This document shows, in pieces, positions 16,498-48,876 of a stretch of DNA of 64,000 nt. Position 1 is the stretch's first letter; each line of letters begins with the position of its first letter. The stretch is from Leptolyngbyaceae cyanobacterium (lineage in GTDB: Bacteria > Cyanobacteriota > Cyanobacteriia > Phormidesmidales > Phormidesmidaceae). The notes under the pieces are model-generated. The model worked only from the letters and a program-made list of their open reading frames with translations, was not told where the DNA came from and did not search any database. The stretch covers positions 1-64,000 of the forward strand of contig JBHJHA010000058.1 of assembly GCA_050331235.1 (NCBI GenBank). The letters run 5' to 3'. Position numbers and translations under genes: made by a program.

Positions 16498-16578
16498 TGG
16501 CGGTGCGGCCGCGCCTTGATGAGGCGACTCAGGTGCCGGCGTCTGCCATAATAGCCCTTGTCTGTTGACTCAACCGCC

Positions 16579-17481
16579 ATGACTACTGTTAAAGCCAACG
16601 GCGCGCTTGCTTGGTTGCGCCGGCTCTATCCCCAGGGTCGAGCCAACATTTCGGTACTGTTCATGGTGATGGGCCTAGCGATCACCGCCACTTTCATTGC
16701 GATTGCCCTCTTGGCACCCGTACTGCAATCATGGGGCATTTTGCAAGATCCCACTGCAGCATTACAAAATCCGGTGCATCAACCGCCCTCACCAGAGCAT
16801 TGGCTGGGCACTACGCGCCAGGGCTATGACGTTCTGTCTCGCGTTCTGTTTGGCACTCGAGCTGCTTGGCAGGTGGTGGTCCTGGCCACACTCATGAGTG
16901 TGCTGATTGGTGTGCCCTTGGGCATGGTCAGTGGCTACCTAGGCGGTAAGCTCGATCGCATCCTCCTGTTTTTCATGGATACGATTTACACGCTACCAGG
17001 GTTGTTACTGTCGGTCACACTGGCATTTGTCGTGGGGCGGGGCGTGATCAACGCCGCGATCGCCCTCAGCATTGCCTACATACCGCAGTATTACCGTGTA
17101 GTGCGCAATCACACGGTCAGCGTCAAAACGGAGCTATTCATTGAGGCGGCTCAGGCCATGGGCGCTTCTACCTGGACAGTGCTCAACCGCTACCTCTTCC
17201 TCAATGTGGTGCAGAGCATTCCTGTCTTGTTTACCTTGAATGCGGCGGACGCCATTTTGATTTTGGGCGGGTTGGGCTTTTTAGGCTTAGGACTGCCTGA
17301 GCAGACTCCAGAGTGGGGAGCCGATATTCGGCAGGCCCTAGATGCTTTGCCCACGGGGATTTGGTGGACGGCGCTGTTTCCGGGGCTGGCGCTGACGCTG
17401 ATGGTGACAGGGCTATCACTGGTGGGTGAAGGGCTGAACGAACTTGTGAACCCATTACTACGGCGAGAAAATTGGCAATAG
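16579..17481 (+). CDS. Peptide ABC transporter permease (DppC/OppC-like)
   Basis: HWLGT..GYDVLSR, FIEAAQAMGAS EAA loop, PEWG. Confidence 0.92.
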   Translation: MTTVKANGALAWLRRLYPQGRANISVLFMVMGLAITATFIAIALLAPVLQSWGILQDPTAALQNPVHQPPSPEHWLGTTRQGYDVLSRVLFGTRAAWQVVVLATLMSVLIGVPLGMVSGYLGGKLDRILLFFMDTIYTLPGLLLSVTLAFVVGRGVINAAIALSIAYIPQYYRVVRNHTVSVKTELFIEAAQAMGASTWTVLNRYLFLNVVQSIPVLFTLNAADAILILGGLGFLGLGLPEQTPEWGADIRQALDALPTGIWWTALFPGLALTLMVTGLSLVGEGLNELVNPLLRRENWQ

Positions 17482-17516
17482 CTTGGCAGTAGCGACGTAA
17501 CACTGCCACCCGCTAG

Positions 17517-17628
17517 CTCGGGATATCGGGGCTCTAATCAAGCGCCCTGCGCCCCCCAGGGAAGGGCGAGAAGGAACGGGCCCTGGGCTCTCGGGATATC
17601 GGGGCTCTAATCAAGCGCCCTGCGCCCC
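17517..17628. repeat. 39-bp perfect direct repeat (17517-17555, 17590-17628) separated by 34 bp
   Basis: CTCGGGATATCGGGGCTCTAATCAAGCGCCCTGCGCCCC occurs twice; the second copy overlaps the recR 3' end. Confidence 0.95.
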
Positions 17629-18200
17629 TCTAAGGCACGAGCTAGAGTAACCTCATCCGCATATTCCAAATCGCCGCCCATGGGCAGCCCAAAGGCAATG
17701 CGCGTCACCTTAGTAAATGGCTTGAGCAACTGGCCAACGTAGAGCGTGGTCGTGTCGCCCTCAATGCTGGGACTGATGGCAATAATCGCCTCTTGCACGT
17801 TGTCCTTGTTGACGCGGTGTACCAAAGGACCAATATTGAGCTGCTCTGGCCCGATACCTTCCATAGGAGAAATCAGCCCCCCCAAAACATGGTATTTCCC
17901 GCGATATTCTCGCGTTTTTTCGAGGGCAATCACGTCTCTAGAATCAGCGACCACGCAGAGGGTCTGAGCATCGCGGTTATTAGATTTGCAGATATCGCAA
18001 ACCGGCTCTGCAGAGAGATGAAAACATACAGAGCAGTAACCCATCTGGGCTTTAGCATCCACTAGCGCTTGGGCAAATGCCTGGATCTCAGCGTCAGATC
18101 GCTTCAGCAAGTGTAATGCCAATCGCTGAGCGGTCTTGGGGCCGACACCCGGTAGTTTTTGCAACTCTTCAATCAGGCGGGCAAGGGGGCGAGCGTAAAT
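17607..18200 (-). CDS. recR: Recombination mediator RecR, probable ATT start
   Basis: [14 protein letters not shown]4 zinc finger, [14 protein letters not shown]; frame extends to [12 protein letters not shown] with AGGAGG 9 nt upstream. Confidence 0.93.
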
Positions 18201-30334: not shown

Positions 30335-31654
30335 TTGGTCATCCATCATCTAGCAACCCTTCAGGAACAACGGAAATACCTCCGATGGTTGATTCAACTT
30401 CTTGGCTGCTTGAGCTGCGGTCTGGCGATCGCCTGTCAGTCCGACGTGTCCTCCAATGCGACCGATCCGACTCAGCAAGTCACCATCCTAGGTACTTTAA
30501 CGGGGAACGGAGAAGATAAGCTGATGGCAGCGATCGCACCATTTACGGAAGCGACCGGTATTGAGGTGACTTACGAAGGTACCGATGCCTTTGCCACGCT
30601 GATTGCCGTGCGGGTTGACTCAGGCAATGCCCCCGATATTGCCCTCTTTCCGCAACCGGGGCTGATGCTCGAGTTTGCCGAGCGGGGAGACTTAGTCCCC
30701 CAAAACCGTGCCGCCATAGCCGATGCCTATGCCCCCTACTGGCTCGACTTAGCCAGTGTTGGGGCAGATCTATATGGTGTCTGGATGCGAGCTGATGTCA
30801 AAAGCCTAGTTTGGTATAACCCTCAAGCCTTTGAGGCCGCCGGCTACACCGTGCCAACCACGTGGGATGAACTGCAAACCCTCAGTGACCAGATGGTTCA
30901 AGACGGCAACACACCCTGGTGTCTGGGCATGGAAAGTGGCGATGCTACGGGCTGGGTCGGCACTGATTGGCTCGAGGAAATATTGCTGCGTCAAGCTGGA
31001 CCGGACCTCTACGATCAATGGATTGCCCACCAAATTCCATTTACTCATCCGGCAGTTGAGCAAGCCTTAGAAACCTTTGGAGCGATCGCCCGCAATCCTG
31101 AGCAGGTCCGTGGCGGCCCGACGGGTGTCATCGGCACACCGTTTGGCGATTCCCCTAATGCTTTATTCAGCGAGCCGCCGGGATGCTACTTACATCGCCA
31201 GGCCAGCTTTATCAGTGACTTTTTGCCTAACGGTCTCGAACCCGGAAAAACAGTCGATGTATTTGGGCTACCACCGATGACGGCCACCGCCGAACGTCCC
31301 ATTTTAGTGGGAGGGATTGTCTATGCTCAGTTCAACAATACCTCCGCCGCGATCGCCCTCATGGAGCACCTCGCCTCGGCTCAGGCCCATGCAATCTGGG
31401 CTGGTGAAGGCTACATTACCCCCCACCAACAGGTCACTTTAGAAGCTTATCCCGACGACTTAACTCGAGATCAGGCGGCAATATTGCAACAGGCCGACAT
31501 CATTCGGTTTGACGGTTCTGACCTGATGCCCGGTGCTGTAGGCACCGGCACCCTTTGGACGGGCATGGTGGACTATGTCGGGGGTAAAGAGGCCTCTACC
31601 GTACTGAATGCGATCGAGCAAAGCTGGTCCGCCTCTCCTGTGGAAAACCAATGA
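30335..31654 (+). CDS. Carbohydrate ABC transporter substrate-binding lipoprotein (alpha-glucoside type)
   Basis: Lipobox-like LAIAC, PDIALFPQPG, KSLVWY, ATGWVGTDW, FDGSDLMPGAVG; start uncertain. Confidence 0.85.
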   Translation: MVIHHLATLQEQRKYLRWLIQLLGCLSCGLAIACQSDVSSNATDPTQQVTILGTLTGNGEDKLMAAIAPFTEATGIEVTYEGTDAFATLIAVRVDSGNAPDIALFPQPGLMLEFAERGDLVPQNRAAIADAYAPYWLDLASVGADLYGVWMRADVKSLVWYNPQAFEAAGYTVPTTWDELQTLSDQMVQDGNTPWCLGMESGDATGWVGTDWLEEILLRQAGPDLYDQWIAHQIPFTHPAVEQALETFGAIARNPEQVRGGPTGVIGTPFGDSPNALFSEPPGCYLHRQASFISDFLPNGLEPGKTVDVFGLPPMTATAERPILVGGIVYAQFNNTSAAIALMEHLASAQAHAIWAGEGYITPHQQVTLEAYPDDLTRDQAAILQQADIIRFDGSDLMPGAVGTGTLWTGMVDYVGGKEASTVLNAIEQSWSASPVENQ

Positions 31655-31667
31655 TCAATGCGGGTCT
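31629..31667. repeat. 39-bp direct repeat, left copy (partner at 47694-47732)
   Basis: CCGCC(T/C)CTCCTGTGGAAAACCAATGATCAATGCGGGTCT, 1 mismatch between copies. Confidence 0.92.
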
Positions 31668-31751
31668 CAAACCAGCCTAGCGAAGGATGCTGTATGGGGT
31701 TTTTTGCATAACCCCCCGAAAAGGTATATTCCACAATGAGATGCCTAAGTC

Positions 31752-32317
31752 TCAATCTGCCGATTGCACGACCTTCGTCCCATCCAGATAGCGATACACA
31801 CTAGCCTTCGAGAGTTTGTAATCCTGCATCAAGGTTTTGATGAGCACTCCCTGCGCTCGCTTCTGTCGCAGCTCCAAACACTGTTGCTCAGTCAAATGCT
31901 TATCTCGACCCAGCCTAACGCCACGGGCTTTAGCATTTTGGATGCCATCCATTTGGCGTTCAGCCCGGATTTGGTTTCAAACTGGGCAATGGCTCCCAGC
32001 ATATTGAAGAGTAGCCGTCCGGTCGCATCGCCGGTGTGAATGTTCTGGTCCAGCACTTGGAGATTGACCTGCTTTTGTTCCAACTGCTCAGCTAACTGAC
32101 AGAGATGAAGCGTGGAGCGTGCCAGCCGGTCTAAGCGCGTCACCACCAATGTATCGCCTTCCCTAATGTATTCGAGGCAGGCTTTCAGCCGAGGTCGCTT
32201 ATGGGAAGAGCCACTCCGCTTCTCCTGAAAGATCTTGTCACAATGCTTCAGTTTATCGAGTTGCACATCGAGACTTTGTCCTACAGAGCTGACCCGCGCA
32301 TAGCCGACGACAGCCAT
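31752..32317 (-). pseudogene. tnpR: Serine resolvase of Tn A, frameshifted near 31972
   Basis: VGYARVSS, VTRLDRLAR, AQFET; continues in another frame as (E)IRAERQMDGI..HTH SKASVYRY. Confidence 0.88.
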
Positions 32318-32319
32318 GA

Positions 32320-32430
32320 TCGCCCCCAAAGGTTTCAATAAGCCTAAGACTTTGTGAGAATCAAGTAATGAGACATGATTTGAGACACTAGTATGAGTAT
32401 GTCTCAAAAGGTCTACTTTCTGAGACTATC
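32320..32430. other. Putative res site of Tn A
   Basis: Repeated TGAGAC/GTCTCA inverted half-sites between the divergent tnpR and tnpA. Confidence 0.55.
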
Positions 32431-32468
32431 GTAAACGACGAAACGTCCCAGCGCGATCCTCCATTTCT

Positions 32469-35400
32469 ATGGCAAAGCAGATAGCAGCCCCGACTCAAAA
32501 ACGTCTGCACATCCTAGGGGATGACGAGATCGCCGACCCCTATGGACTCCCTCACTTCACCTCGGAGGAGCAAAGCGAGTACTTCGCACTATCACTGAGG
32601 GAAGCTATGGCCATCGAGCAGCTGCATAGCAGCTGCATAGCATTAAATCTCGGCTCTATGCCATTCTGCAACTGGGCTACTTCAAGGCCCGCCATCTCTT
32701 TTTTGTCTTCAGCTTTGAAAGGGTGGCAGCGGATGCCCACTATCTCCAGGAGCGCTACTTCCCCACGTTCCAGCTAACTGCGTTTGAGCCGACGAAGGTC
32801 ACGCGCCTGAAGCACCAGCGCATCATTCTTGAACTCTGCCATTACCGTATCGGCGCTGAGCCAGAGCGTCAAGCACTGAGACGCAAAGCCGAACAGGCCG
32901 CGAGGGTTTGCGGAAAACCCATCTACATCTTTCGCGAGCTGATGCATTACCTCGAAGAGGAGCGTATTGTTGCGCCTGGATATAGCTTGATGCAGGATAT
33001 CGTGGGTCAGGCCATTGCCGATGAGCAAGACCGATTGGTTGCCGTGATGCAACGGCGTCTGACACCGTCTGAGACAAAAGCCTTAAATCGGCTGATAGAA
33101 GACGTACCCGGACTGTACGAAATCACCCAGCTGAAACGAGAACCCAAAGATTTCAGCCTCGGTGAGGTGAAGCGTGAGATTCGTCGCAGCGAGCAGATTC
33201 AGTCGCTCTATCACCTGGCCCAGACGCTGTTGCCTGCGCTGAAGATTTCTGGTGAAAGTATGAAGTACTATGCGTCACTGGTGACCTACTACTCCGTCTT
33301 CCGGCTCAAGCAGTTGGCTCAGGGCACGGTACATGTGTATCTTCTGTGCTTTGTTTACCACCGCTACCAACGGGCACACGACAATCTCATCAACAGCCTG
33401 ATATATAACGTCAGACGGTATGTTGAAGCGAGCAAGGTAGCGGCTAAAGAACAGGTCTATGAGTACCGGATTGAGGGTAACCAAAACCTACAAAAAGCCG
33501 GTCAGATTCTCAAGCTGTTTACGGACGACACCATTGTCGAAACTACCCCCTTTCAAGAAGTTCAGACAAAAGCCTTTGAGATCCTAGAGCGTCAGAAGTT
33601 GACCGTCCTCGCTGAGCACATTGCCACCCAAGCTAGCTTCGATGAGACGGCTTTTCAGTGGGAGTACATAGACACTTTGGCACGGCAGTTCAAGTGCAAT
33701 CTACGGCCTATCCTACAAGCGATTGAGTTTGCCAGCGCCTCGGGGCATGTCCCTCTGCTAAAAGCGCTTCAGTTCTTGAAAGCCGCAGCTCAAAAAGGAC
33801 GATCCCTGAATCAATATCGGCCAGACTCGTTTCCCACCCAGTTCATTCCAGACGCAACCAAACGCTATCTCTACGCCTCGGCGGAAGCCGGTGGTCATCT
33901 ACTACCAGACCGCTACGAGTTCCTGGCCTACCGCCTGCTGCGCAACGGTTTGGAATCGGGCGACATTTTCTGTCGCGACAGCGTTCGCTTCCGCAGTTTT
34001 GAGGACGACCTGCTCAGCGAGCAGCAGTGGCAAGCCAAGACGGAGCTGATTACAGTAACCGGTCTGACAATACTCAAGCAACCGATTCAAGAGCATTTGG
34101 CTGCGCTCGAACAGCAGCTAGAATCACGGCTGGCTCAGGTGAATCAGCGCCTGAATGCTGGTGAGAATCCACATTTTGAGACCAAAAAGCGAGGTTCAAC
34201 CATCCGGTGGACGCTTCAGTCACCAGGCATTCGCGAGTCGATCAACCATCCGATGTTCAGTGCGCTGAAGCACGTCACCTCAGCAGCGTTCTGCATTTCG
34301 TCAATCAGCACTGTCAGTTTAGCGAGGCCTTTGAACACCACTTGGGACGTTACGTCAAACAGAAATCAGAGGACAGCGTGCTGATCGCCTGCCTGATTGC
34401 CTGGGGCACCAATATGGGACTGGGCCGTATGGCCGAGACCTTGGATATCAACTATCACGCCCTGGCAAACGCATCTGACAACTTTCTCCGTCCCGAGACG
34501 CTGAGAAAGGCCAACGATCGCGTCAGCAATGCCATGGCTGAGCTACCCATTTTTCGGCACTACGATATTGGCGGAGCCCTTCACTCCAGCAGTGACGGGC
34601 AAAAGTTCGAAAGCCAGATTCAGACCATCAATGCTCGTCATTCGCCCAAGTATTTTGGCTTGAAAAAGGGCATCGTTTCCTACACCCTGCTGGCCAACCA
34701 TGTGCCGGTCAATGCCAGAATCATCGGCGCGAATGAGCACGAGAGCCATTATGTCTTTGACCTGCTGTTCAACAACACTACAGAGGTACAGCCGACGATT
34801 CATTCCACGGATACCCATGGCACCAATGAGGTCAATTTTGCCATCTTGCACCTATTCGGCTATCAGTTCGCCCCGCGCTACCGGGATATTCATGACAAGG
34901 TCAGTCATGCGCTCTATGGATTCCAACACCCCAGTCAATATGAGGATGTCCTGCTCAAGCCGATTCGCAAGATCAATACCCCACTCATCATGGACGAGTG
35001 GGACAACATCCAGCGCATCATGGTGTCATTGGCCCTGAAGACGACCACTCAAAGCATCATTGTCAGCAAGCTGAGTGCCTATGCTCGCAGAAATAAGACC
35101 CGGCGGGCGTTGTGGGAGTACGACAACATCCTCAAAAGCCTCTATCTTCTGGACTATGTCGATTCGGTTCCCCTGCGTCAGAATGTCCAACGAGCCCTGA
35201 ACCGGGGCGAAAGCTATCATCAATTGCGCCGAGCCGTTTCCTACGCCAACTTCGGCAAGTTTCGCTTTAAAACTGAATACGAGCAACAGATATGGGGGGA
35301 TTGCGCTCGCCTGCTGACTAACTGCATCATCTATTACAACGCCTCTATCCTGTCCGACCTGATGACTCACAGCGATAGCTGTGGTGACGTGGCCAGGGTA

Positions 35401-35535
35401 GCCCTACTCAGCCAGGTGTCGCCAGTCGCGTGGCAGCACATCAATTTTTATGGTCGCTATGAGTTCAATAAGCAGCCTGAACCCATCGATATAGAAGCGA
35501 TTCTTCAACAGTTGATACAGCTGAGGATTGAGTAA
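32469..35535 (+). pseudogene. tnpA: Tn3-family transposase of Tn A, with two frameshifts
   Basis: ILQLGYFKA restored by removing an 11-bp duplication (32620-32641); 1-nt loss near 34277; SSDGQKF, STDTHG, LNRGESYH motifs. Confidence 0.92.
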
Positions 35536-35591
35536 GACTCACTCGTCTGATTGTGGAATATACCTTTTCGAGGGGTTATGCAAAAAACCCC

Positions 35592-36289
35592 TAGATGAGT
35601 TCAAGCGGCATAAAAACGCCCTGCTACTCATTGATGAGTGGACCATTATCGGAGCCACCACATTTCGATTCAACGAGCATCTCAAGCCGTTTATTGATGA
35701 TGTGTGCTCGACTATCACCACGCTATCCAGCCGGGGGCTACAGGCAGATCAAGCCGTATGGTTAATTGCCCCCCATTGCCGACTAGATTTCCTTGAAAAG
35801 TCAGCTAAGGCTCTGAAGCTTTGCAAGCTCTGTTTAGTCGCTGCTAACCCTGAGCGACCGTTCGATGTGGATGGCAATCGCATTGGATTTGATAGTGAGT
35901 TATTCGACCAAGTAAAGAACAACTGGAAAGACCTAACAGCGCCCCCAAAAGGTATTGATTCGCTCGACTCAGAACGGATTGCCTTTATCAATGGTCAATG
36001 GTTACCGCTGGGTTCCATCGAAGTTACGGTAACCAACTCGGAACCTGAGGGCGTAACCACCGTAACCAACTGCCACAGCAGCGATACAGCGCTTATCTAT
36101 ACCCGCTTATCGGAGGTGTGTAACTTGACGGTAACCGAGGTTACAGGGGCTTTATCTGCCCTTTCTCAGGGCCTAACTAAGACTCACATTATCAAAAACA
36201 TTTGGGGCTATACCGGGCGTAATTATGCCGACTATGCCGAACGATTTGACCAATTACAGCAACTTACTGAAGTGAATCAAGATGTCTAA
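35592..36289 (+). pseudogene. 5'-truncated P-loop ATPase-like gene with a C-terminal HTH-like region
   Basis: Walker-B-like LLLIDEW just after the Tn A IR; the ORF-track start lies inside the transposon end, so the true 5' end is lost. Confidence 0.5.
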
Positions 36290-37025
36290 GAACTCCCAAA
36301 ACAACTCCAACTCATTCGACAGAAACTTTGCTACTGGCATTCCTAGTAATGATGATATTTCGCGGTTGTTTTCTGCCCATCGCCGCTATGCCAAAAGCTA
36401 TAAGGAAAATCAGCGCAAGATGCGCATGTTCAAGTTTGCTAAGCGGATAGCTTGGGTGCTGTTTGCTGCCGATGTCTGGTTTAGTTTGCTGGGGATTCGG
36501 GCCTTTAGCGGTTCCCTCGAATTTGCCCTTTTTACAGCGGTGTTCGTAGGGGCTGGCCAGTGGGTCGTCAGTGAGTCGCTGCTGTCTAAATCGTTTGGCT
36601 CACTCATGAAGATAGACGCCGACAGCGACGGGGAAATCACCCTGGCTGAGTGGATGCGTTGGGGCATTCACTTATCAGCCCTGATCGTGGTCTACGGCCT
36701 TGATATTGCCACCAACTTGGCTGCCATTAATGGAGAGGTGTTGGGGACATTGCCCTTTACGATCGCCGGTGATACGGCTGCCAGTAGTGTGCCGATATGG
36801 GCTGCTTGGGTGGTATCCCTCATCATTTGCGGCATTCTCTGCTTTGCGGATGAGTGGATTCATTCAATCAGTGATTCCCGATTGGCAGAACTGGAGAGCG
36901 AGCAACCTGCCCTCAAAGAACGCGCCGCTGTCATCGAAGCCAAGTTGGCGGAAGCGGGGGCCTTCGGTGAAACCATCCTGACTAAGGCCACAGAGCGGGG
37001 GATGCAGCGTGGCCAAGCCTACTAA
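36282..37025 (+). CDS. Hypothetical membrane protein with an EF-hand-like loop and a coiled coil
   Basis: About 4 TM segments, DADSDGEITLAE, overlaps the upstream stop. Confidence 0.7.
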   Translation: MSKNSQNNSNSFDRNFATGIPSNDDISRLFSAHRRYAKSYKENQRKMRMFKFAKRIAWVLFAADVWFSLLGIRAFSGSLEFALFTAVFVGAGQWVVSESLLSKSFGSLMKIDADSDGEITLAEWMRWGIHLSALIVVYGLDIATNLAAINGEVLGTLPFTIAGDTAASSVPIWAAWVVSLIICGILCFADEWIHSISDSRLAELESEQPALKERAAVIEAKLAEAGAFGETILTKATERGMQRGQAY

Positions 37026-37203
37026 ACCCATCTTTCTCACCCAGCGCCGCTGGTATCACCGCGTCAAACCTCTGACATGGGTGCTGGTGGCGCTATTCAT
37101 TGCCGACATTGCCACCCCTGGCTATATGCGCTTTGACTTTCTGCTCTTTACGTTGGATGCGACCAATGCAGTCGAGTCATTCCACCATCACCCACATCCA
37201 TAG
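37009..37203 (+). CDS. Small hypothetical membrane protein
   Basis: GTG start overlapping the upstream gene, one TM segment. Confidence 0.4.
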   Translation: MAKPTKPIFLTQRRWYHRVKPLTWVLVALFIADIATPGYMRFDFLLFTLDATNAVESFHHHPHP

Positions 37204-38014
37204 AATTGGCTTGCCCTTGCTCGCTATCAGTCGAGAGCAAATGGTGCAGATCGCTTTAGCTGTTGCTGTCTCAGTACCGGCAGTGAACGCGATTATCGAC
37301 GGCTTGTTATCTCCCCTATTCCCTCAGCAGCAGGAACCGATACAGGCGATATCGAGCCATGCAGCCCCCTTTGAGCCGCTGGCAGTCTATGCCCCGCATT
37401 ACTACGATGAATCCCCACTTGGTAGTTATGACCTAACGCTGGTGGACCCGGTAACTGATAGCGAAGCGGTAGCTGTGCCTAGTCCCTGCAATGGCACGGT
37501 AAGCACTACTGGAGCCGATGGCGGTTATGGCAACTATGCGGAGATTCTATGCGATGACGGCAACGCTATTTTTGTCGCTCATGCCTCTGAGGTCTGGGTA
37601 AACAAAGGTGACGCCCTTCGCAAGGGTCAAGCGTTCATGGTGCAGGGGTCGACCGGCAACAGTACGGGGCCTCACTTGCATGTAGAGATTACGCCGCCCG
37701 ATGGGGATAGAACTAATCGAGCTAAAACGGAGCCGGTGATGGAGCAAGCGATTGCCTTTTGGGAGGCGGGCGTATCGCCGGTTTCACCTGTTGCTAGCGC
37801 TGCTGGCGAGGCTTTAGATGATGCTACTTTGCGATGTGCTATCGGTGCCGCTGAAGGCACGATGAACGACGATTGCACGCCAAACCATAACTACGATGGC
37901 CATATTGATCCGGGTAATGGGGCGGCTAATCTTGGGGCCTTCAGCTACCAGCACGGTGCTAGCTCGCCACAGGAAGGCCCCAAAGTAGCGAAGCTGCGAT
38001 TTGGGGCAATTTAG
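37100..38014 (+). pseudogene. M23 peptidase-domain protein, C-terminally truncated by a TIR cassette
   Basis: GGYGN, AHA, GSTGNSTGPHLHVE; second domain AIGAAEGT..GHIDPGNG..FSYQHG runs into the IR at 37970; start uncertain. Confidence 0.72.
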
Positions 38015-39437
38015 TTCCTTTGTATTGTTTGACCCCTAATCCTATAACCAAGCCCAAATGGGCTCAGATTAATTGCCAACAGCTCGCAAACAAACCTTTC
38101 GGCTCAGATTAACTGCAAATAAGCTGAAAGGCTTGACTAACCCTCATTAACTCTGAAAGTGAATCTCGACGATGCCGAGGTTGCCAAAATCCGCGGTGAC
38201 GGTAACACCGAGATCAGTAGACAGTGGCCCAATGGCAGCTCCGGTGGTCACCCAGTCCCCAGCTTTAATCATCAGCCCACGCTGAGCCAGGTGATTCGCT
38301 AGCCAGGTTAATGAATTGAGGGGATTGCCCACGACATTGGCTCCGGTCTTGGTCGCAGCTAGTTGGCCATCGAACAGAGCACGGACAATGCAGGTGGACA
38401 GATCGAGCTGCTGCCAATTGGGCACGGCGGGGGCATACACAAAGCTGTAATTGCCCCCATGGTCGGCAATGAGACCGGGCGCACCACCCTGGGCTGGACC
38501 ATTGACGAGACGGCTACCCACTGGTTCGATAGCCGGGTGCAGGGTGTCTGCGGCGGCGGTAACGGCGGCAACGGAATAGGGTGCCCCCTGGGGCGGCAGG
38601 TCTTTGCCCATGCGAAATGCAAACTCAAACTCGAAGCCATACAGGGTGGCGCTGCTATCGGTGATAGTCTGGGGGGTCGGCCCCACTAATGACTCAAACA
38701 AAGGACCGGCGATAGGTTCGCTGACATGGGCCAGTTGCTGTAGGGGTTCGTTGGTCAGGGCCACCTTCCAACCCACTTGCGGGATGCCAATATCTTGCCG
38801 AAGCTGGTCCTGAACGGCGTAGGCTTCGTCAAGGGTTGCGGGAACCGCCGTTGGCGGGAGATGAATGCGCTGGTTTTTGCGTCTGGCGGTAATCAGGAGT
38901 TCAGCCGCTTGTTTGGTGTCAACCATGTTTCTTTCTCTGTGATTCCTTTATAGCCGAGTGAACCATAGAAGACAGCATGACCACTTCAAGGGCATGGAAC
39001 AGCAGGTGAAACTAGACCCCAGACCCAGCAGCCACACTGCACCGACCGATCCCTATACAAAGATCAAATGCTAGTAATGCTATCAAGAGAGTGTCCATTA
39101 AGCTAAAAGTCTTTACTAGTAGGGCATTCAACAATTTTTAGCCAAATCGACTAGCTGCGCTGCTCCGCAACTAGTCGATGACTGATGAGAGGTTAAAACA
39201 GCTTTTACCACAAGGATCACAGCCGATTTCTATTGATGATGTCTGGGTAGATGAGTCTCACCAAATTAGGGCGTTGCAGCTGTACTATCAGCTCACAACT
39301 TAGGCCATATTTAGGCCAAGCGCTTCCAGGGAACTGAGACTTATTTTAAGACTACCTTCCTCTATCAATGATGCTTTTATAGTTCAAAAGAACTAAATTG
39401 CCCCAAATCGCAGCTTCGCTACTTTAAGGCCTTCTTG
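37970..39437. mobile_element. Non-autonomous TIR cassette carrying a passenger gene
   Basis: 48-bp inverted repeats at 37970-38017 and 39390-39437 (45/48 match); no transposase inside. Confidence 0.8.
38147..38926 (-). CDS. 2-keto-4-pentenoate hydratase / FAH-family protein
   Basis: EAYAVQ, GWKVALT, EFEFAF, IADHG, GNPLNSLTWLAN, GDWVTTG. Confidence 0.85.
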   Translation of the reverse strand: MVDTKQAAELLITARRKNQRIHLPPTAVPATLDEAYAVQDQLRQDIGIPQVGWKVALTNEPLQQLAHVSEPIAGPLFESLVGPTPQTITDSSATLYGFEFEFAFRMGKDLPPQGAPYSVAAVTAAADTLHPAIEPVGSRLVNGPAQGGAPGLIADHGGNYSFVYAPAVPNWQQLDLSTCIVRALFDGQLAATKTGANVVGNPLNSLTWLANHLAQRGLMIKAGDWVTTGAAIGPLSTDLGVTVTADFGNLGIVEIHFQS

Positions 39438-39645
39438 GGACGACAATCCAAGGCACTGCCGCTCGGCCGCACGCGGATGTTACTCACGCTTCGAAGTGAG
39501 CTACGGCATCGGTTTTCGGGTAGTTTGCGCCGCCTCGTGGGATTTTTCGTAACCCTTTGCCCTCTTGCCCTTTGCGGCACAAAAATAGTTTATTTGTACT
39601 ATTAAGGGGTTTCGTACAGGATAAGCTCCTAAAACGATAATTTCT

Positions 39646-39685
39646 TAAAGATATAAAGGTATTAGATGTTTATGCGTTTAAGTTA
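39646..39685. repeat. Tandem 8-bp array (parS-like)
   Basis: TAAAGATA TAAAGGTA TTAGATGT TTATGCGT TTAAGTTA; related arrays at 40810 and 42040. Confidence 0.6.
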
Positions 39686-39716
39686 TAAGAGCCCTGAAGA
39701 GGTAAGCCCGCAGGGC

Positions 39717-40793
39717 TCAAGGGGCAGATTCTTCGTTGCCCTCGTGCGTTTGCAGATCGCGCACGGCAGCGTCTAGCTCCATCTCCAATTGTTCGGCGCT
39801 AGGCAGGCTGGTTTGCAGGTCGGGGGGCAGCTCGTCACGTAGCTTATAGGTCGAGACGCCGATCGGATTTTCCATCATGTCGAGGGCAAACTCGACGATG
39901 GTGCGCTTCTTCGACCGACAGAGCACAATGCCGATTGTGGGGTCGTCCCGCTCACCACACAGCAGATAGTTCACCGCCTTCACGTAGAAGTTCATTTTGC
40001 CTGCATATTCTGGCTTGAATTCGGTGGTCTTGAGGTCAATGACCACGTAGCGGTGGAGTTTGATGTGGTAGAACAGCAAATCAATAAAGAACTCATCGCC
40101 TTCGAGCTCCAGCCGGTACTGGCTGCCGACGAAGGCAAAGCCGACCCCGAGTTCCAACAAAAAGTCGCGAATGCGATCCACTAGGGCACGTTCGAGGTCG
40201 CGTTCCTGAGCGGCCTTGTCCAATGTGAGGAACTCAAAGTTGTAAGGGTCTTTGAGCAGTTGCCGTTGGAGGTCTGACTGTTCGGGCGGCAGGGTCTTCT
40301 CAAAGTTGGTGACTGCCCCTCCCTGCCGCCCGAACAGATGAGTTTCGATCTGCATCACCAGAATGTCTCGGCTCCAGCCATTTTCTAGAGCTTGCTGGCC
40401 ATACCAGAGCCGTTCTTCGGTGCTCTTGAGCTTTTCGAGTAGGGCGATGTTGTGCCGCCAGGGTAATTGTCCAACGCAGCGTTGGACAATTAGTTCATCG
40501 GGCCAGGCTTCGGCAAAGGCCCGCATATACATTAGATTCGAGCGAGAGAATCCCTTGATATCGGGAAACTCCCGTTTCAAATCCTGTGCTAGTCGTTGGA
40601 TGACCTTGGCGCCCCAATTTTCCTGGGCCTGCCGCTGCAAGATTTCGCGCCCAATTTGCCAATAGAGTTGAATCAGCTCTTGGTTGACAGCCAACGCTGC
40701 GCGTACTTGGGCCGACCGAATCCGTTGTTTCAGCCCATCTAACAGCGCGAAGTAATTTTCCTCTTCAGGGAATAGGGGACTATTGGTAGACAA
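39717..40793 (-). CDS. DUF1016 / YhcG PDDEXK nuclease-domain protein (cargo copy)
   Basis: AVNQELIQLYWQIG, GFSRSNL, LPWRHN, KDPYNFEFL, LELGVGFAFVGSQ, IDLLFYH, GKMNFY. Confidence 0.92.
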   Translation of the reverse strand: MSTNSPLFPEEENYFALLDGLKQRIRSAQVRAALAVNQELIQLYWQIGREILQRQAQENWGAKVIQRLAQDLKREFPDIKGFSRSNLMYMRAFAEAWPDELIVQRCVGQLPWRHNIALLEKLKSTEERLWYGQQALENGWSRDILVMQIETHLFGRQGGAVTNFEKTLPPEQSDLQRQLLKDPYNFEFLTLDKAAQERDLERALVDRIRDFLLELGVGFAFVGSQYRLELEGDEFFIDLLFYHIKLHRYVVIDLKTTEFKPEYAGKMNFYVKAVNYLLCGERDDPTIGIVLCRSKKRTIVEFALDMMENPIGVSTYKLRDELPPDLQTSLPSAEQLEMELDAAVRDLQTHEGNEESAP

Positions 40794-40849
40794 GGCCCAA
40801 CTCCTTGGCTAAAGGTATTAGACGTTTATATATTTAAGGTATATAGAAA

Positions 40850-41263
40850 TCAAAGATTTAAGGCTTCCTTGAGGTCCTCAATGTTGTGAATTGCTTCCCA
40901 GTCCAGGTCTTGGGCCTTGAGGAGATCGATGGCTGCGCCAATGAGGTGTTGTGGATAGACCCGCTCGTTGGGGGGCACAGCATATTCATTGTTGTCACGC
41001 ACCTGTTGGGCAGTGTCCTGTAGCCAGCGCTGCTGCTTCCGTTCAATCTTGATATTCACTGTTGTCAAGGTTTCTTTGCGACGGCGCTTGGCCTTCGTCT
41101 TAGGGGTAGCTTTCGTTGCGTCGGTGGGCGCTGCTGCCTCGGTCGGTGCTGGCGGTGGCGGCGTGGCTTCCTCCGCGACGGCGGTCTCCGTCTGCGCCGC
41201 TGGCTGTGAGACCCCCCCGAACGAACTCAAACTCAGATTTCCCATCCGTTTCTTCGTAGTCAT
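40850..41263 (-). CDS. Putative ParA partner / centromere-binding protein
   Basis: ATGA-coupled to parA; disordered N-terminus and a beta-helix-helix-like C-terminus (TTVNIKIER..). Confidence 0.6.
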   Translation of the reverse strand: MTTKKRMGNLSLSSFGGVSQPAAQTETAVAEEATPPPPAPTEAAAPTDATKATPKTKAKRRRKETLTTVNIKIERKQQRWLQDTAQQVRDNNEYAVPPNERVYPQHLIGAAIDLLKAQDLDWEAIHNIEDLKEALNL

Positions 41264-41979
41264 TGCAGTCCCCATACTTTCAAACATTCTTTGGCGAGTG
41301 AGCGATAGGCCGTCGCCCCGGAAGATTTGGCGTCGTAGTCAGCGACGGGCACCTGCTGAGCGATAGATTCAGCGATCGCAATGTTTTCGGGAATGAACGA
41401 ATGCAGCAAGCGATAGTCGAGATCTACAGAGCCGGCGATCAGCAGGTCATCGGCTTCCCGTGACAACACCAAGCGACTTTTGTACCGCGATCGCAAAACT
41501 TCGATGGGTACGTCGGGTCGCTCACCCCGGATCAGCCCAATCGCTTCCGAGATGCCTTTCAAGCTGGCAGGTTCACATAAGGTCGGCATAATGACGCGAT
41601 CGGCATTCAATACGGATTGTACTGATGGCAGCCCTAAGCTAGGTGGGCAGTCCATCAGACACACATCATAACCTCTTAGACCTTAAATGGATGGAGCGAT
41701 TAAATCTTTATCAGCTGATAATCTAAACATCCCAATGTCACCAGCGATGAGATGCAGCTTCTCGACGGAAGTGGTTAAGGGTTCACCGCTACCATCTAGC
41801 CAATCTAAAATGGTTGGCTCTGCACCATCGAGCCCCAACGAGAAGGAGATCGTTCGCTGCCCATCTAGATCAATAAGGACGGTTTCGTATCCAGCCCGCG
41901 CAATTTCAGCACCCAAGTTGAGGGCGGTTGTGCTTTTAGAGGTGCCACCTTTCAAATTCCAAACAGCGACTTTCAGCAT
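41260..41979 (-). pseudogene. parA: ParA-family ATPase with an internal in-frame TAA (41683-41685)
   Basis: NLKGGTSKSTT, IDLDGQ, DCPPSLG; the two ORF-track pieces are in the same frame (APSI*GLRGYDVCLMDCPP). Confidence 0.88.
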
Positions 41980-42275
41980 GGTGGTTCATTGTGAGGACAT
42001 AATGACTTTATGTCATTAACCTTCGTTCTGAATAACAGTTAAAGGTCTAATATGTTTATCTGATTAAATGTGCCAGTTGACGAAAATCGCTGGACTGAAT
42101 CTGGATTATTTGCTGATGAAAGGAACTGTGCCAGTTGGCTGAAGCCCTTGAAACCTCGTGACCAGTAAAAACGGGGTCAAAAAGCGCGATCGCCCCGGTT
42201 TGCCAAGCTTTCCTCCATATTTAACGGAGGGAGTAGTTGCCTTGTGTCGCAGCGCTTCCAGAAAGGGTTAACGCT

Positions 42276-42887
42276 TTAACGCCCTGCGGCATGAAAAATA
42301 GCGTCGGCGGTGAGCGACAAGGCGGGGAAGGTCATCGAGACGATGCGATCGCTGCTGCGAAACTGTCGTAGCTGATATTCACCCTTCTCTAGGCTGTAGA
42401 CCGAAATGGTCGGCGTTTTCGGCGAGCCAATATAGCGAGTTGCTCCAACTGCCAGGTAGTCAACAATCCAATATTCCAGGATGCCGAGCGCTTCATACTC
42501 AGCCAGCTTGTAGAGATAGTCGTCGCGCCAATTGGTTGAACTCACCTCTACGGCGAGCTGAATCGGCTCCTCCAGAGCCGCATATGCTTTCGGGTCAGAT
42601 GTCCAAACGGTTTTATCAATCACACTCACGTCCGGAGTCCGACCTTGCACCAAACCGTCATCGCGGCGAGTTTTGACGGAAGCAAATCGCGAGACTTTGT
42701 AATGGAGCTGATCGCGTCTGACTTCGTCGCGGAAGGCATCGTAGATAAAGTCGGCTACATCATCATGGGCGCGAGTTGCCATTAGCTGAACTTGTTCCCC
42801 GTTAACCAATTCATAGCGATTGCCATCTTCTGGCATCGCCTCCAGAAATTGCAGAAAGCTGAGTGGTGGAGCAAGCGCTTGAGTCAT
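42276..42887 (-). CDS. Uma2-family endonuclease
   Basis: RYELVNG, PDVSV, LAVEVSS, KLAEYEALGILEYWIVD. Confidence 0.92.
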   Translation of the reverse strand: MTQALAPPLSFLQFLEAMPEDGNRYELVNGEQVQLMATRAHDDVADFIYDAFRDEVRRDQLHYKVSRFASVKTRRDDGLVQGRTPDVSVIDKTVWTSDPKAYAALEEPIQLAVEVSSTNWRDDYLYKLAEYEALGILEYWIVDYLAVGATRYIGSPKTPTISVYSLEKGEYQLRQFRSSDRIVSMTFPALSLTADAIFHAAGR

Positions 42888-43028
42888 GATGACGATAGCC
42901 GCAGCTATATGACAGTAGTGGTATGAGGTACCTCTAGTTTACGGGGTTTGAGTAGTAATAGAACAGAAACCTACGCTAAGGCTGAAGTCCTTGCGTTACA
43001 GTCTTCCTGGGCCTTAAAGCGAGCAATA

Positions 43029-44237
43029 TCATTTAGGAATCATCTGTAGCTGGGCATTAATCTCACCAAGTTCAGCCTCCTCTGGGTCAAAGAATCCCCC
43101 AACCCATTCGAGCATCTCCTCATGTTCAGGATGCTCCACGTCTTGGATGGTCTCTAGGAACTCCTGATAGCCCCAAACCCCACCACAGTCTTCCGGTGGA
43201 CAGGCACGCTTGGCTTTGATGCAAACGGGATAGCTAACATCAGGCTCCGCTGGGAGAACCTTTTCAACCAGGACGTCATGCTCCCAGGAGTCTCCGAAGT
43301 CATACAGATAAGAGAACTTAAACTTTTCTCCTGGTACGAGGCGACTCAATTTGACCGCCTGTTCGTCACGTAAGTCCATCTCATCAAAGCCTAAGTCAGG
43401 CATGGGGACGCCATACTCAACGCCTTGAACATGGAAGGAATGGAGGTGTGAATTTGTCCACCCCATTGAGAGCTGAACCACCCAGTGCAACTGCCCTAGG
43501 GTGATATCACTGGGCACCTGTACCCGCCGCCAAATCGGTGGCCGGATGTCCTTGAGGGTGATTTTGAGTTGGTAGATTGATGGAGCTTTCTTTCGAGGAG
43601 CCATTTTAGAGCGCGGGGGATAAAAATCGGGGTGAGTTTCGCGGTGACGTTTCACAATCTCAGTAACTGTCGTCTTGCTGAGCTTCAAATGATGGGCAAC
43701 GGTTCGATAGGCCGTTCCCGCCTCCACCATCTGTATCACTTTTGGGGCCAGCGGGTCTGACTTAATCCGTTGGCCTGGTCGGCGGCCCAAAAGCTTTCCT
43801 CTAGCCTTCGCGGCGGCCAACCCTGAGCGGACTCGTTCGCTGACTAAATCGCGTTCAAACTCTGCCAGCGCTGCCATCAACTGGGCAATCAGACGGCCTT
43901 GCGGGGTCGTTAAGTCGAACTGTAGTCCGGTTTGGGCAATCAAGGAGACTTGCCAACTGTGTAAAGCTTGCAACGTTTGAATCAGGTCTAGAGTGCTGCG
44001 GCCCCATCGAGTCAGTTCGGTCACGAGGACGGCATCAATCTTCCGAGCTTGCGCCAAGGCCATCACCTGCTCTCGTTCAACTCGGGATGACCTTGTCCCT
44101 GGGGCGGTCTCCTTCCACACGCCAACCACCTGGAAATTGGCTTGGGTAGCGTAGTGCAATAAGTCCTGCTCTTGTCGGTCACAGGACTGATCCATGGTTG
44201 AGACCCGGCAATAAATGGCAATCCTTTTTTGTACCAA
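43029..44237 (-). CDS. Serine resolvase fused to a pRiA4b ORF-3-like domain
   Basis: AIYCRVST, ELTRWGRS, AEFERD; then IYQLKITL..PPIWRR..SHLHSF..YDFGDSWEH..CPPEDCGG. Confidence 0.88.
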   Translation of the reverse strand: MVQKRIAIYCRVSTMDQSCDRQEQDLLHYATQANFQVVGVWKETAPGTRSSRVEREQVMALAQARKIDAVLVTELTRWGRSTLDLIQTLQALHSWQVSLIAQTGLQFDLTTPQGRLIAQLMAALAEFERDLVSERVRSGLAAAKARGKLLGRRPGQRIKSDPLAPKVIQMVEAGTAYRTVAHHLKLSKTTVTEIVKRHRETHPDFYPPRSKMAPRKKAPSIYQLKITLKDIRPPIWRRVQVPSDITLGQLHWVVQLSMGWTNSHLHSFHVQGVEYGVPMPDLGFDEMDLRDEQAVKLSRLVPGEKFKFSYLYDFGDSWEHDVLVEKVLPAEPDVSYPVCIKAKRACPPEDCGGVWGYQEFLETIQDVEHPEHEEMLEWVGGFFDPEEAELGEINAQLQMIPK

Positions 44238-44292
44238 TTAAACCCTTCTGACTTTAGAGGGCTGAAACCCGCGATGTGTCGTACCGTTTTGG

Positions 44293-44324
44293 TGTACCAA
44301 TCAGACTATACTCTGACTGGTACA
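44293..44324. other. Putative res subsite of Tn B
   Basis: TGTACCAATCAGA-CTATAC-TCTGACTGGTACA palindrome between the divergent resolvase and tnpA. Confidence 0.55.
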
Positions 44325-44354
44325 AATTATGATGGGATTAGCTACCTCAGTCGC

Positions 44355-47300
44355 ATGCCTGTTCGTTTTCTGACGGAAGAGCAACAACAGCGCTATGGGT
44401 GCTATCTAGACACACCAACTGAGCTTCAGCTGGACCGATACTTTCATCTCGATGACGTAGACCGACAACTGATAGCTGCACGCCGGGGCGACCACAATCG
44501 GTTGGGGTTTGCCGTGCAGTTGGGAACTGTGCGTTTCTTGGGGACCTTCCTGGCCAATCCAATTGAGGTGCCGCCCAACGTCGTTGACTATTTAGCGCAG
44601 CAGCTAGAGGTCGCTAGTACGAGTAGCCTGCCAACTTATCTGGAGCGAGAGGAAACCCGCTGGGGACACACGGCGCTGATCAAGCGTCACTATGGCTACC
44701 AGGATTTTAGCGCTCAGCCAGCACACTGGCGATTTATTCGTTGGCTCTATGCTCGCGCCTGGGTAGGAACAGAAGGCCCCAGCGTTCTCTTTGATATTGC
44801 GACAACGCAGCTGCTGGAGCAGAAAATTTTACTCCCTGGCGTCAGCGTCTTGGAACGGTTGGTAGCGACTGTGAGGGAGCGGGTGTCACAGCGGGTATGG
44901 AAGGTCTTGTCACGTCTGCCGACAGCTGAGCAATGCCAGCGCCTGGACGCCATTCTCAAAGTGGATGAGGATGCTAGGCAAACGGTCCTTGATCAGCTCA
45001 GGCGCTCACCGACGCGCCATAGCGCTCCAGCGCTGGTGGCGGCACTTCATCGGTTAAAGCGGATACGGGCCATTGGCGTCAGCCATCTGGTGATGCCAAT
45101 GGTTCCGCCCAGTCGGTTGAAGGCGTTGTCACGAGCTGCATTCACCTCCCGCGCCCAGACTATTCAGCGGATGCCGAAAGCTCGGCGGATAGCGACGTTG
45201 TTAGCCTTTGCCCGTGATGTCGAAGCGACGGCCCAGGATGATGCGCTGACGGTTCTAGAGCTACTCACAAAAGAATTGTTGTCCAAATCAGCGAGTCAAG
45301 GAAGAAAGAAACGGCTGCGGACACTCAAAGATTTAGATGCGGCGGCGCTGACGTTGAGTACCGCCTGCGCCATTCTCATAGCGCCAGAGCAGGAAGTTAC
45401 TCAGCTGCGCGAGACAATCTTTGCTCAGGTTCCCCCAGAACAACTAGCAGCAGCGGTCGAGCCGGTGGAATCCATTGCCCGCCCACCAGATGACCAATAT
45501 TACCCTGAGATTTTGAGTCGCTGGCGCACCGTGCGGTTATTCCTGCCGACGCTGTTGAATACGATTGACTTTCAGGCAACCCAGGCAGGGCAGGACATTC
45601 TAGCGGCGGTAGCCTTTCTCAAATCGATTGAGGGCAAGCGTAAGCCTGTCATGACGGAGGCTCCTTTATCGATTGTCAGCAAAGGCTGGTGGCGTTGGGT
45701 ATGTCCAGCTCCAGGCGAAATTGATCGCCGTGCCTACACTTTCTGTGTGCTGGAACAGTTGATGAATGGGCTGCGCTGCCGGGACTTGTACGTGTCTCCG
45801 AGTGTGCAGTGGAGCAACCCACAGGAAAAATTGATTCAGGGCCGCGAGTGGGTGGCGGTGCGCAGCCAGGTCTGTCGCACGTTGAATCTTGCGCCGAAGC
45901 CTGATGAGAAATTAACGCAGCTAAAGCAGCAGCTCAATGATGCTTACCACCGGACGGCTCAGAATCTGCCCAACAATGATGCTGTACAAATTGTTGAGCA
46001 AGAGAACGGGCGACCAACCCTGACAATTAGCCCGCTAGAGAAGCTAGAAGAGTCTGAAAATTTGCGATCGCTCAGGGCGAAGGTGACGCCCCTGCTGCCT
46101 CGGGTAGATCTCCCGGAAGTACTGCTAGAGACTCACGAAAAAACAGGCTTTCTCGATGCTTTCTCTCATGCTCATGAGGAAGGTGCTCGCGCTGATAACC
46201 TCACCACTAGCCTCTGCGCTGTCCTGGTGGCGATGGCCTGTAACATTGGGCTCAGACCGTTGCAGCGTAAGGATACGCCTGCGTTAACGAAGCATCGTTT
46301 GGCTTGGGTGAAGCAGCACTACATTCGAGCTGAAACACTCGTTGAATCGAATGCTTGTTTGGTGAATGCACAGAAAAATGTTCCCATTGTTCAGGCTTGG
46401 GGTGGCGGTGAGGTCGCTTCTGCCGATGGTTTAAGGTTTGTCGTGCCAGTGAAAACATTAAATGCTGGCCCTAATCGCAAGTATTTCAGCAGCGCGGGGT
46501 ATTACCTACTACAACTTTGTCTCAGATTTGTTTGCTGGGTTTCACGGCCTAGTGGTGACCGGGACGCTGAGAGATTCGTTGGTCGTGCTGGTCGGCTTGC
46601 TGGAGCAGCGGACAGGGCTGAGGCCGCGCGAACTGATGACGGATACGGCAGGTTACAGCGATATCGTCTTTGGTCTGTTCTGGTTACTGGGCTATCAGTT
46701 CAGTCCGCGCCTGGCCGACACTGGTGAGGCCCGCTTCTGGCGACTCGACCCAAAGGCTGACTATGGTGTACTCGATGGGATAGCTCATCAGAAGGTGAAA
46801 GTGCATCTCATTGAAAACTCGTGGGACGACATGCTACGGGTAGCTGGGTCGCTCAAGTTCGGTAGGGTCAGCGCTTTGGAAATTATGCGCGTGCTACAGA
46901 AGGGCGGGAAGCCGTCTACGTTGGGCAAGGCCATTGGTGAGCTGGGCCGGGTGGCGAAGACATTGTATTTGTTGCACTACATCGATGATGAGGATTATCG
47001 GCGACGCATTCTTATCCAGCTCAATCGAGGGGAAGGGCGGCACAGTTTGGCCAGGGCGATCTGTCATGGCAACAAAGGGGAGATCCGGCAGCGCTATCGT
47101 GAGGGGCAGGAGGATCAACTCAATGCGCTGGGGCTGGTCACCAATGCTGTCATTCTCTGGAATACTCTGTACATGGATAGAGCCCTTGATCACCTCCGTG
47201 CTCAGGGCTTAGAGATCGATCCTGACGACATCGCTCGGTTGTCGCCGCTGGGACATATCCATATCAATATGCTCGGTCGTTATTACTTCGAGCTGGCTGA

Positions 47301-47367
47301 GGCACTCAAGGAGGGTGGGTTTAGGCCGCTGCGGAACCCTGATGACCCAAATGAGCCATTTTACTAG
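44355..47367 (+). pseudogene. tnpA: Tn3-family transposase of Tn B, frameshifted near 46490
   Basis: MPVRFL, NRLGFAVQLGTVRFLG, ASADGLRF; then RGITYYNF, MTDTAG, QLNRGEGRH in another frame. Confidence 0.92.
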
Positions 47368-47436
47368 GCTCGAAGCTAAGCGTGGCAACGGATGTAGCCT
47401 TAGCGCAGGTTTCTGTTCCGTTACTACTCAAACCCC

Positions 47437-47682
47437 TATCCTGTCCGACCTGATGACTCACAGCGATAGCTGTGGTGACGTGGCCAGGGTAGCCCTACTC
47501 AGCCAGGTGTCGCCAGTCGCGTGGCAGCACATCAATTTTTATGGTCGCTATGAGTTCAATAAGCAGCCTGAAACCATCGATATAGAAGCGATTCTTCAAC
47601 AGTTGATACAGCTGAGGATTGAGTAAGACTCACTCGTCTGATTGTGGAATATACCTTTTCGAGGGGTTATGCAAAAAACCCC
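47437..47682 (+). mobile_element. Second copy of the Tn A right end (246 bp)
   Basis: Near-identical to 35346-35591 (one substitution seen). Confidence 0.95.
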
Positions 47683-47693
47683 TGTATCGGATC

Positions 47694-47732
47694 CCGCCCC
47701 TCCTGTGGAAAACCAATGATCAATGCGGGTCT
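47694..47732. repeat. 39-bp direct repeat, right copy (partner at 31629-31667)
   Basis: Contains the stop codon of the DUF1016 gene. Confidence 0.92.
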
Positions 47733-48784: not shown

Positions 48785-48806
48785 AACGACACACGATTCA
48801 TTCCAA

Positions 48807-48876
48807 GAATCTGCAACAGGCTGTTGCAAGATTCACATCGTACCGCCTCGAGATAAATGTGCAACGGGCTGTTGCA
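48807..48876. promoter_or_regulatory. Two TGCAAC-N5-GTTGCA palindromes upstream of the DUF1016 gene
   Basis: Cores at 48812-48828 and 48860-48876. Confidence 0.6.

Follow-up and report, generated by a model that had tools for sequence, protein, structure and literature searches.

The window, a stretch of 64,000 nucleotides from the genome of a Leptolyngbyaceae cyanobacterium, carries at the 3′ end of recR an exact 39-bp direct repeat whose two copies flank a unique 34-bp insert, with a resulting period of 73 bp (scar 1; Table 1). This geometry of 39 + 34 + 39 bp, in which the repeat includes the recR stop codon, had been described in an earlier note on the same DNA and was confirmed. The C-terminus of RecR is identical to that of relatives in the genus, the open reading frame is intact, and the protein is unchanged by the scar. 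The product of the membrane-protein gene converging on recR is, by resemblance, presumably an ABC permease. No Rfam match was found at 17200-17900. Exact repeats of at least 30 bp with a period of 55-100 bp were counted in the 4.8-Mb assembly (118 contigs), leaving out a poly-C run, and only scar 1 and a CRISPR remnant on contig C49 remained. Since the only other such repeat in the assembly is a CRISPR remnant, scar 1 lies far beyond chance. A sharp genome-wide peak at approx. 72-74 bp, which had been predicted in the earlier note, is absent, as there is one uninterrupted scar in 4.8 Mb.

Table 1. Coordinates of the scars, adjoining genes, the Tn3-family element and the CRISPR remnant (window positions, unless a contig of the genome, G000, is given)
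Feature	Position	Strand	Remarks
Membrane-protein gene converging on recR	16558..17481	+	Adjoins recR in 3/5 relatives fetched
Scar 1, repeat copy A	17517..17555		39 bp, exact; now downstream of the recR stop
Scar 1, unique insert	17556..17589		34 bp; 36 bp if the repeat is 37 bp
Scar 1, repeat copy B	17590..17628	-	Holds the last 6 recR codons and the stop (17607-17609)
recR, ORF as listed	17607..18164	-	TIGR00615 above cut-off; true start may be further upstream
Scar 2, repeat copy A	31629..31667		Includes stop of the sugar ABC substrate-binding gene (30335-31654, +)
Scar 2, first 28 of 34 bp of the insert	31668..31695		Ends in the 5-bp Tn3 target duplication (31691-31695)
Tn3-family element, 16 kb, with nested elements	31696..47682		Terminal inverted repeats, target duplication, transposase NF033527
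Second 5-bp Tn3 target duplication (47683-47687) and last 6 bp of the scar 2 insert	47683..47693
Scar 2, repeat copy B	47694..47732		Mismatch in the non-coding part; includes stop of the YhcG/DUF1016 gene (47720-48829, -)
Scar 3 (outside the window)	G000:C59:144-180 + G000:C18:149-220		Repeat copies at C59:144-180 and C18:184-220; interrupted by an IS (target duplication of 9 bp)
Orphan type I-D-like CRISPR remnant	G000:C49:7465-7715		Truncated repeat, two intact 37-bp repeats, degenerate in-register fourth (20 of 33)

Two further scars split by mobile elements

A second locus of the window (31629/47694) had been proposed to share the geometry of scar 1, and it does so once the Tn3-family element is subtracted: the two parts of the insert, 28 + 6 bp, add up to 34 bp and the period becomes 73 bp (scar 2). 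The repeat copies differ by one mismatch and are 16,065 bp apart because the element sits within the insert. The repeat spans the abutting stop codons of two converging genes, encoding a sugar ABC substrate-binding protein and a YhcG/DUF1016 protein. Of 13 loci returned for the genus, two paralogues were set aside, and the two genes are adjacent in 9 of the 11 orthologue loci left. From these neighbouring pairs and the nested position of the Tn3 element an order of events follows, in which the adjacent genes came first, the repeat-insert-repeat unit second and the Tn3 element last.

A third scar was found outside the window, when the assembly was searched for repeats of 30-45 bp with two copies, irrespective of the distance between these. 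Most of the 45 pairs returned were recognized by eye as palindromes, tRNA pieces, ends of mobile elements, paralogues or tandem duplications, and one more scar fits. Here, an exact 37-bp repeat is separated by a 35-bp insert after subtraction of an IS, giving a period of 72 bp. IS ends terminate both contigs concerned, C59 and C18, and the 9-bp target duplication agrees across them, but is missing next to the remaining IS ends (C91, C36). Judging from this duplication and from the continuity of the gene, C59 and C18 are probably joined via the IS. The repeat falls in the middle of a small gene, for which a family search gave no match; all 11 homologues of this gene are uninterrupted and contain the duplicated stretch once. 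Older, diverged scars at periods of 68-78 bp were not detected in the genome, where the background at these periods is coding periodicity.

Correspondence with type I-D CRISPR arrays

The scars have periods of 73, 73 and 72 bp (39 + 34, 39 + 34 and 37 + 35) at three unrelated sites and with unrelated inserts. A comparison with the genome's own arrays, as suggested in the earlier note, gave a match: the remnant on C49 has periods of 72, 73 and 73 bp, and of 190 periods in seven type I-D arrays of relatives, 140 fall at 71-73 bp. The end of contig C49 cuts the array on its leader side, and no cas genes were found on this contig. Its repeat belongs to a family found after cas1 in relatives, and Cas10d and Cas1d scored above their cut-offs in all three such loci scanned. 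A unit of 39 + 34 bp is compatible with 37 + 36 bp, a boundary shift already considered in the earlier note, because among 190 pairs of adjacent repeats in real 37-bp arrays, 48 agree over at least 39 bp owing to chance-matching spacer ends (exactly 39 bp in 27/190). Copy A of scar 1 is, therefore, likely a 37-bp target duplication with two additional bases which match by chance. From the 190-pair counts, the probability that two of three repeats measure 39 rather than 37 bp by chance is about 0.16. The target duplication thus has the length of the cognate repeat, being exactly 37 bp in scar 3, with movable boundaries in scars 1 and 2.

In Cas1-Cas2 chemistry, a prespacer is joined through its two 3′ ends to opposite strands, at positions separated by the length of one repeat, and gap repair duplicates the target. 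We consider it quite probable that the three scars stem from natural off-target spacer integration by Cas1-Cas2, presumably of type I-D. The two 3′ ends of a 35-36-bp prespacer would have attacked opposite strands 37 bp apart, and gap filling would then have duplicated the target, resulting in a repeat-insert-repeat unit within ordinary chromosomal sequence. The assignment to subtype I-D is less certain than that to Cas1, because other arrays of the relatives, type III included, have 35-36-bp repeats and overlapping periods.

The earlier note had also brought up an unknown integrase with a fixed-length ruler. An enzyme of this kind would duplicate 39 bp and insert 34 bp, and could also be a Cas1 of another subtype or a Cas1 on a passing mobile element. 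Such an enzyme would account for scars 1 and 2 both being exactly 39 + 34 bp, for an assembly without cas1 and for targets unlike type I-D junctions. However, scar 3 measures 37 + 35 bp, a 39-bp match arises from 37 bp by chance in 27 of the 190 real pairs (in 48 if longer matches are included), and the periods coincide with those of the genome's own array. A separate enzyme is not needed to explain the scars, and we regard this origin as rather improbable.

The targets of the three scars showed no likeness to 11 type I-D leader-repeat junctions, scoring no higher than random sites on a matrix of these junctions (six sub-regions, p 0.08-0.75), and since they do not resemble such junctions, the scars are not classed as functional arrays. 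Each scar carries a single insert. The repeats could hardly be processed into crRNA, as they consist of gene sequence without measurable likeness to a CRISPR repeat. Scars 1 and 2 are likely neutral relics rather than working immune arrays. Both leave their genes intact because the duplication restores each gene end, which would also explain their survival.

Off-target integration has been described for overexpressed type I-E Cas1-Cas2 of E. coli, resulting in “neo-CRISPR” loci (Nivala, Shipman and Church 2018, as cited in 10.1101/148544, PMC11788318), and its natural frequency is called unclear in a preprint of 2018 (10.1101/148544). Most likely, the scars work like these events and represent a new case of a known kind, as in both a spacer-sized insert lies between two repeat-sized copies of ordinary chromosome. 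In contrast to the E. coli loci, as far as these are covered by the sources cited, the scars are natural and not a product of overexpression, have type I-D dimensions (37 + 35-36 bp), occur in an assembly without cas1, are in two cases old enough to have received later transposons and are known from sequence alone. Accordingly, the proposal of natural one-spacer neo-CRISPR scars in the earlier note is supported with respect to off-target integration, to which the third scar adds support, but nothing indicates a working neo-CRISPR array.

Off-target acquisition has further been proposed as the origin of orphan or isolated CRISPR arrays (Shmakov et al. 2020, as cited in PMC13142298). Like these arrays, the scars are repeat-spacer-repeat units away from cas genes; unlike them, going by the citing paper, they have repeats that consist of gene sequence and bear no measurable similarity to a CRISPR repeat. 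The closest correspondence in dimensions is provided by type I-D of Synechocystis 6803, which has 37-bp repeats and a modal spacer length of 35 bp, or 36 bp without Cas4 (PMC5896167), and takes up spacers even without a leader (PMC6607411). Cas4-Cas1-Cas2 of this system thus shares repeat length, modal spacers of 35-36 bp and the possibility of leader-free integration with the scars, but the portions of these papers available to us concern integration into arrays, and the enzyme genes were not found in the assembly studied here. Type III-A Cas1-Cas2 without HU integrates in vitro with low fidelity and off target (PMC13769266). This resembles our case by showing that Cas1-Cas2 generally integrates off target where host factors are missing; it differs, according to the parts of that source at hand, in being an in vitro finding on another subtype without fixed genomic scars. 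A literature search, with most subscription papers outside its scope, returned no report of natural type I-D off-target scars. Three scars of the same size, two of them with later transposons, constitute natural evidence with type I-D dimensions in a genome in which no cas genes were found.

Relatives, insert sources and read evidence

The earlier note had looked to the cas1/cas2 type of the genome, but cas1, cas2, cas4 and cas6 (PF10040) were not found in the 95.5%-complete assembly. Likewise, tblastn with the proteins of relatives' cas loci detected no cas gene (hits listed from six loci). In contrast to the assembly, 7 of 13 members of the genus contain cas1, as do 29 of 40 relatives, and close matches to type I-D cas1 were present in 15 of 150 family genomes. 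The cas genes would have been lost later, or may not have been assembled, leaving the orphan array on C49.

A single-copy allele without a larger element, which the earlier note had proposed to look for in relatives, was indeed seen at the level of homologues, in relatives only about 80% identical: the recR end is repeated in none of 24 relatives, and the homologues of the scar 3 gene agree (11/11). No strain-level empty site was seen among these relatives, and none of the Logan contig joints listed at locus 2 is an empty-site joint. At the recR end, 4-7 kb of additional DNA are present in two relatives (G001 and G010), where inspection by eye revealed no duplication longer than 15 bp and no recognisable integrase ORF; recR was, therefore, rejected as an att site. 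This extra DNA, the stop codons covered by scars 1 and 2 and the tyrosine-recombinase-like reading of insert 1 (see below) would fit remnants of integrative elements, in which a gene 3′ end was duplicated as attL/attR and nearly the entire element was deleted afterward. However, besides the missing att duplication and integrase in G001 and G010, scar 3 is located in the middle of a gene, three deletions occurring independently would not each stop at 34-35 bp, and the ends of an element would be expected to remain rather than the middle of an integrase gene. Such an origin is extremely improbable in our view.

No scars were found in 1.98 Mb of relatives' sequence (780 kb of G011, 402.5 kb of G001 and 800 kb of G016), and two of these three genomes have cas1. 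A period-72 match in G011 was discarded, as it belongs to a longer multi-copy repeat region. One candidate for an older scar was noticed in a more distant cyanobacterial genome with cas1 (G039, L133:10413-10522). It lies just past a gene end and consists of a 37-bp repeat with three mismatches and a 36-bp insert, i.e., a period of 73 bp.

The type I-D PAM is GTN. A search for the protospacer and PAM of the 34-bp insert of scar 1, as advised in the earlier note, found neither in the genome, 172 family genomes, plasmids, phages or IMG/VR. In the own genome, no full-length source of inserts 1 and 2 was detected, the best matches covering 22-23 of 34 positions; for insert 3, which was checked as an 18-mer seed only, no source was found either. 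Phages and plasmids gave only partial matches at chance level for the inserts. In IMG/VR the seeds of the three inserts had 0, 0 and 1 matches, and that one agrees at 21 of 35 positions across the full insert. In the 172 family genomes, the seeds had 3, 2 and 4 matches and their reversed controls 3, 2 and 1; upon extension, no match exceeded 23 of 38 or 25 of 35 positions. One frame of insert 1 (17556-17589) reads as the motif GKGxKER, typical of tyrosine recombinases. Its seed was found in 28 records, 14 each from metagenomes and genomes, with 27 of 34 positions matching at best. From the 28 ORFs, 14 were chosen by eye for their context, and all of these are PF00589, from which it follows only that a widespread recombinase motif is encoded by the seed. 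The motif is a weak hint that insert 1 may derive from an integrase gene, and just a hint, because the residues after the motif fit poorly.

Since the genome is apparently derived from a metagenome, an assembly or library artefact was considered, as was a chance repair error, in which a duplication would have received a templated insert. According to its label, the best-matching run is a stromatolite metagenome. In Logan contigs of run X1, insert 1 is joined to 30 repeat bases on each side, and both junctions are thus present in a separate assembly. This speaks against the assembly error on which the earlier note had wanted a check; X1 may be the source sample and, hence, not independent. Runs X2-X4 do not cover the scar junctions, and none of the runs listed is an RNA run. 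The depth of the insert 1 contig in X1 is half that of its flanks (5.6 versus 11.3 and 10.5), as might be seen with an artefact, and the repeat has a depth of 15.1. The expected depths of insert and repeat are 10.9 and 21.8 if all cells are carriers, and 5.5 and 16.4 if half of them are. These values hint at a mixed population of carriers and non-carriers for scar 1, with pieces of only 94 and 39 bp, whose depth is not the share of cells. However, scar 2 is old DNA, with a mismatch and a nested transposon, and the contig leading from its repeat through the insert into the Tn3 element reaches full depth in X1 (11.2). Against a repair error, inserts 1 and 2 are not copied from genomic sequence, and the simple tandem duplications of this genome have periods of 29, 45 and 46 bp with gaps of at most 2 bp. 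We give very little credence to either kind of error.

Transposons within the scars

Two of the three scars contain a later transposon, compared to a chance expectation of 1e-5 to 2e-3. This figure is crude: about 162 repeat blocks were taken as the upper bound on insertions, and its upper value assumes 15% neutral DNA. The excess might suggest that transposition, or its repair, made the repeat-insert-repeat units and that scar 1 has since lost its element. However, scars 2 and 3 hold unrelated elements, both with an intact target duplication of their own inside the scar (5 bp in insert 2; 9 bp across the repeat-insert junction of scar 3), so both scars predate their transposons. Further, neither end of an element is present in scar 1, whose insert occurs nowhere else in the genome. 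A transposon-linked origin thus appears very improbable.

Under off-target integration, the excess of transposons may rather reflect a survivor bias, as these three cases suggest: a bare 73-bp unit would tend to revert, whereas a unit separated by kilobases would persist. RecA-independent deletion between short direct repeats is reported to fall with distance, for 101-bp repeats on E. coli plasmids (PMC7145654). Two of the three scars were hidden from period scans by the inserted elements, which suggests how scars survive and how they are to be counted. More speculatively, and with considerable doubt on our part, off-target integration could be a steady, mostly invisible mutagen in wild cyanobacteria. 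Fresh scars would be lost fast through deletion between their closely spaced repeats, and those still present would be either very young (scar 1) or held in place by a transposon which entered the new neutral DNA and moved the repeats apart (scars 2 and 3). Signs of youth in scar 1 would be its perfect repeats and the half depth of its insert. If this were true, mobile elements would find landing pads generated by CRISPR errors, even where neighbouring genes had left no gap, and short-period scans would undercount the true rate of scars.

The Tn3-family element of scar 2 (31696-47682) is composite, with a nested element bounded by 41-bp inverted repeats at about 42943-47436. Judged by resemblance, its ORFs presumably include one like a resolvase, one like ParA and one like a peptidase, besides broken transposases and a second DUF1016-like gene. 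Because a 251-bp stretch containing the transposase end and the right inverted repeat is present in duplicate (35342-35592 and 47433-47683; 99%), the left part of the element, 3.9 kb in length, may in turn be a Tn3-like unit of its own. Inverted repeats of 50 bp (37973-38022 / 39385-39434) bound approx. 1.46 kb, and contigs of X1 and X3 skip this part or leave there, as expected for a small mobile element. Finally, a 34-bp AT-rich motif occurs in three intergenic copies (39654, 40810 and 42040; 68-100% alike) beside successive cargo genes; these copies are possibly promoters, operators or recombination sites.
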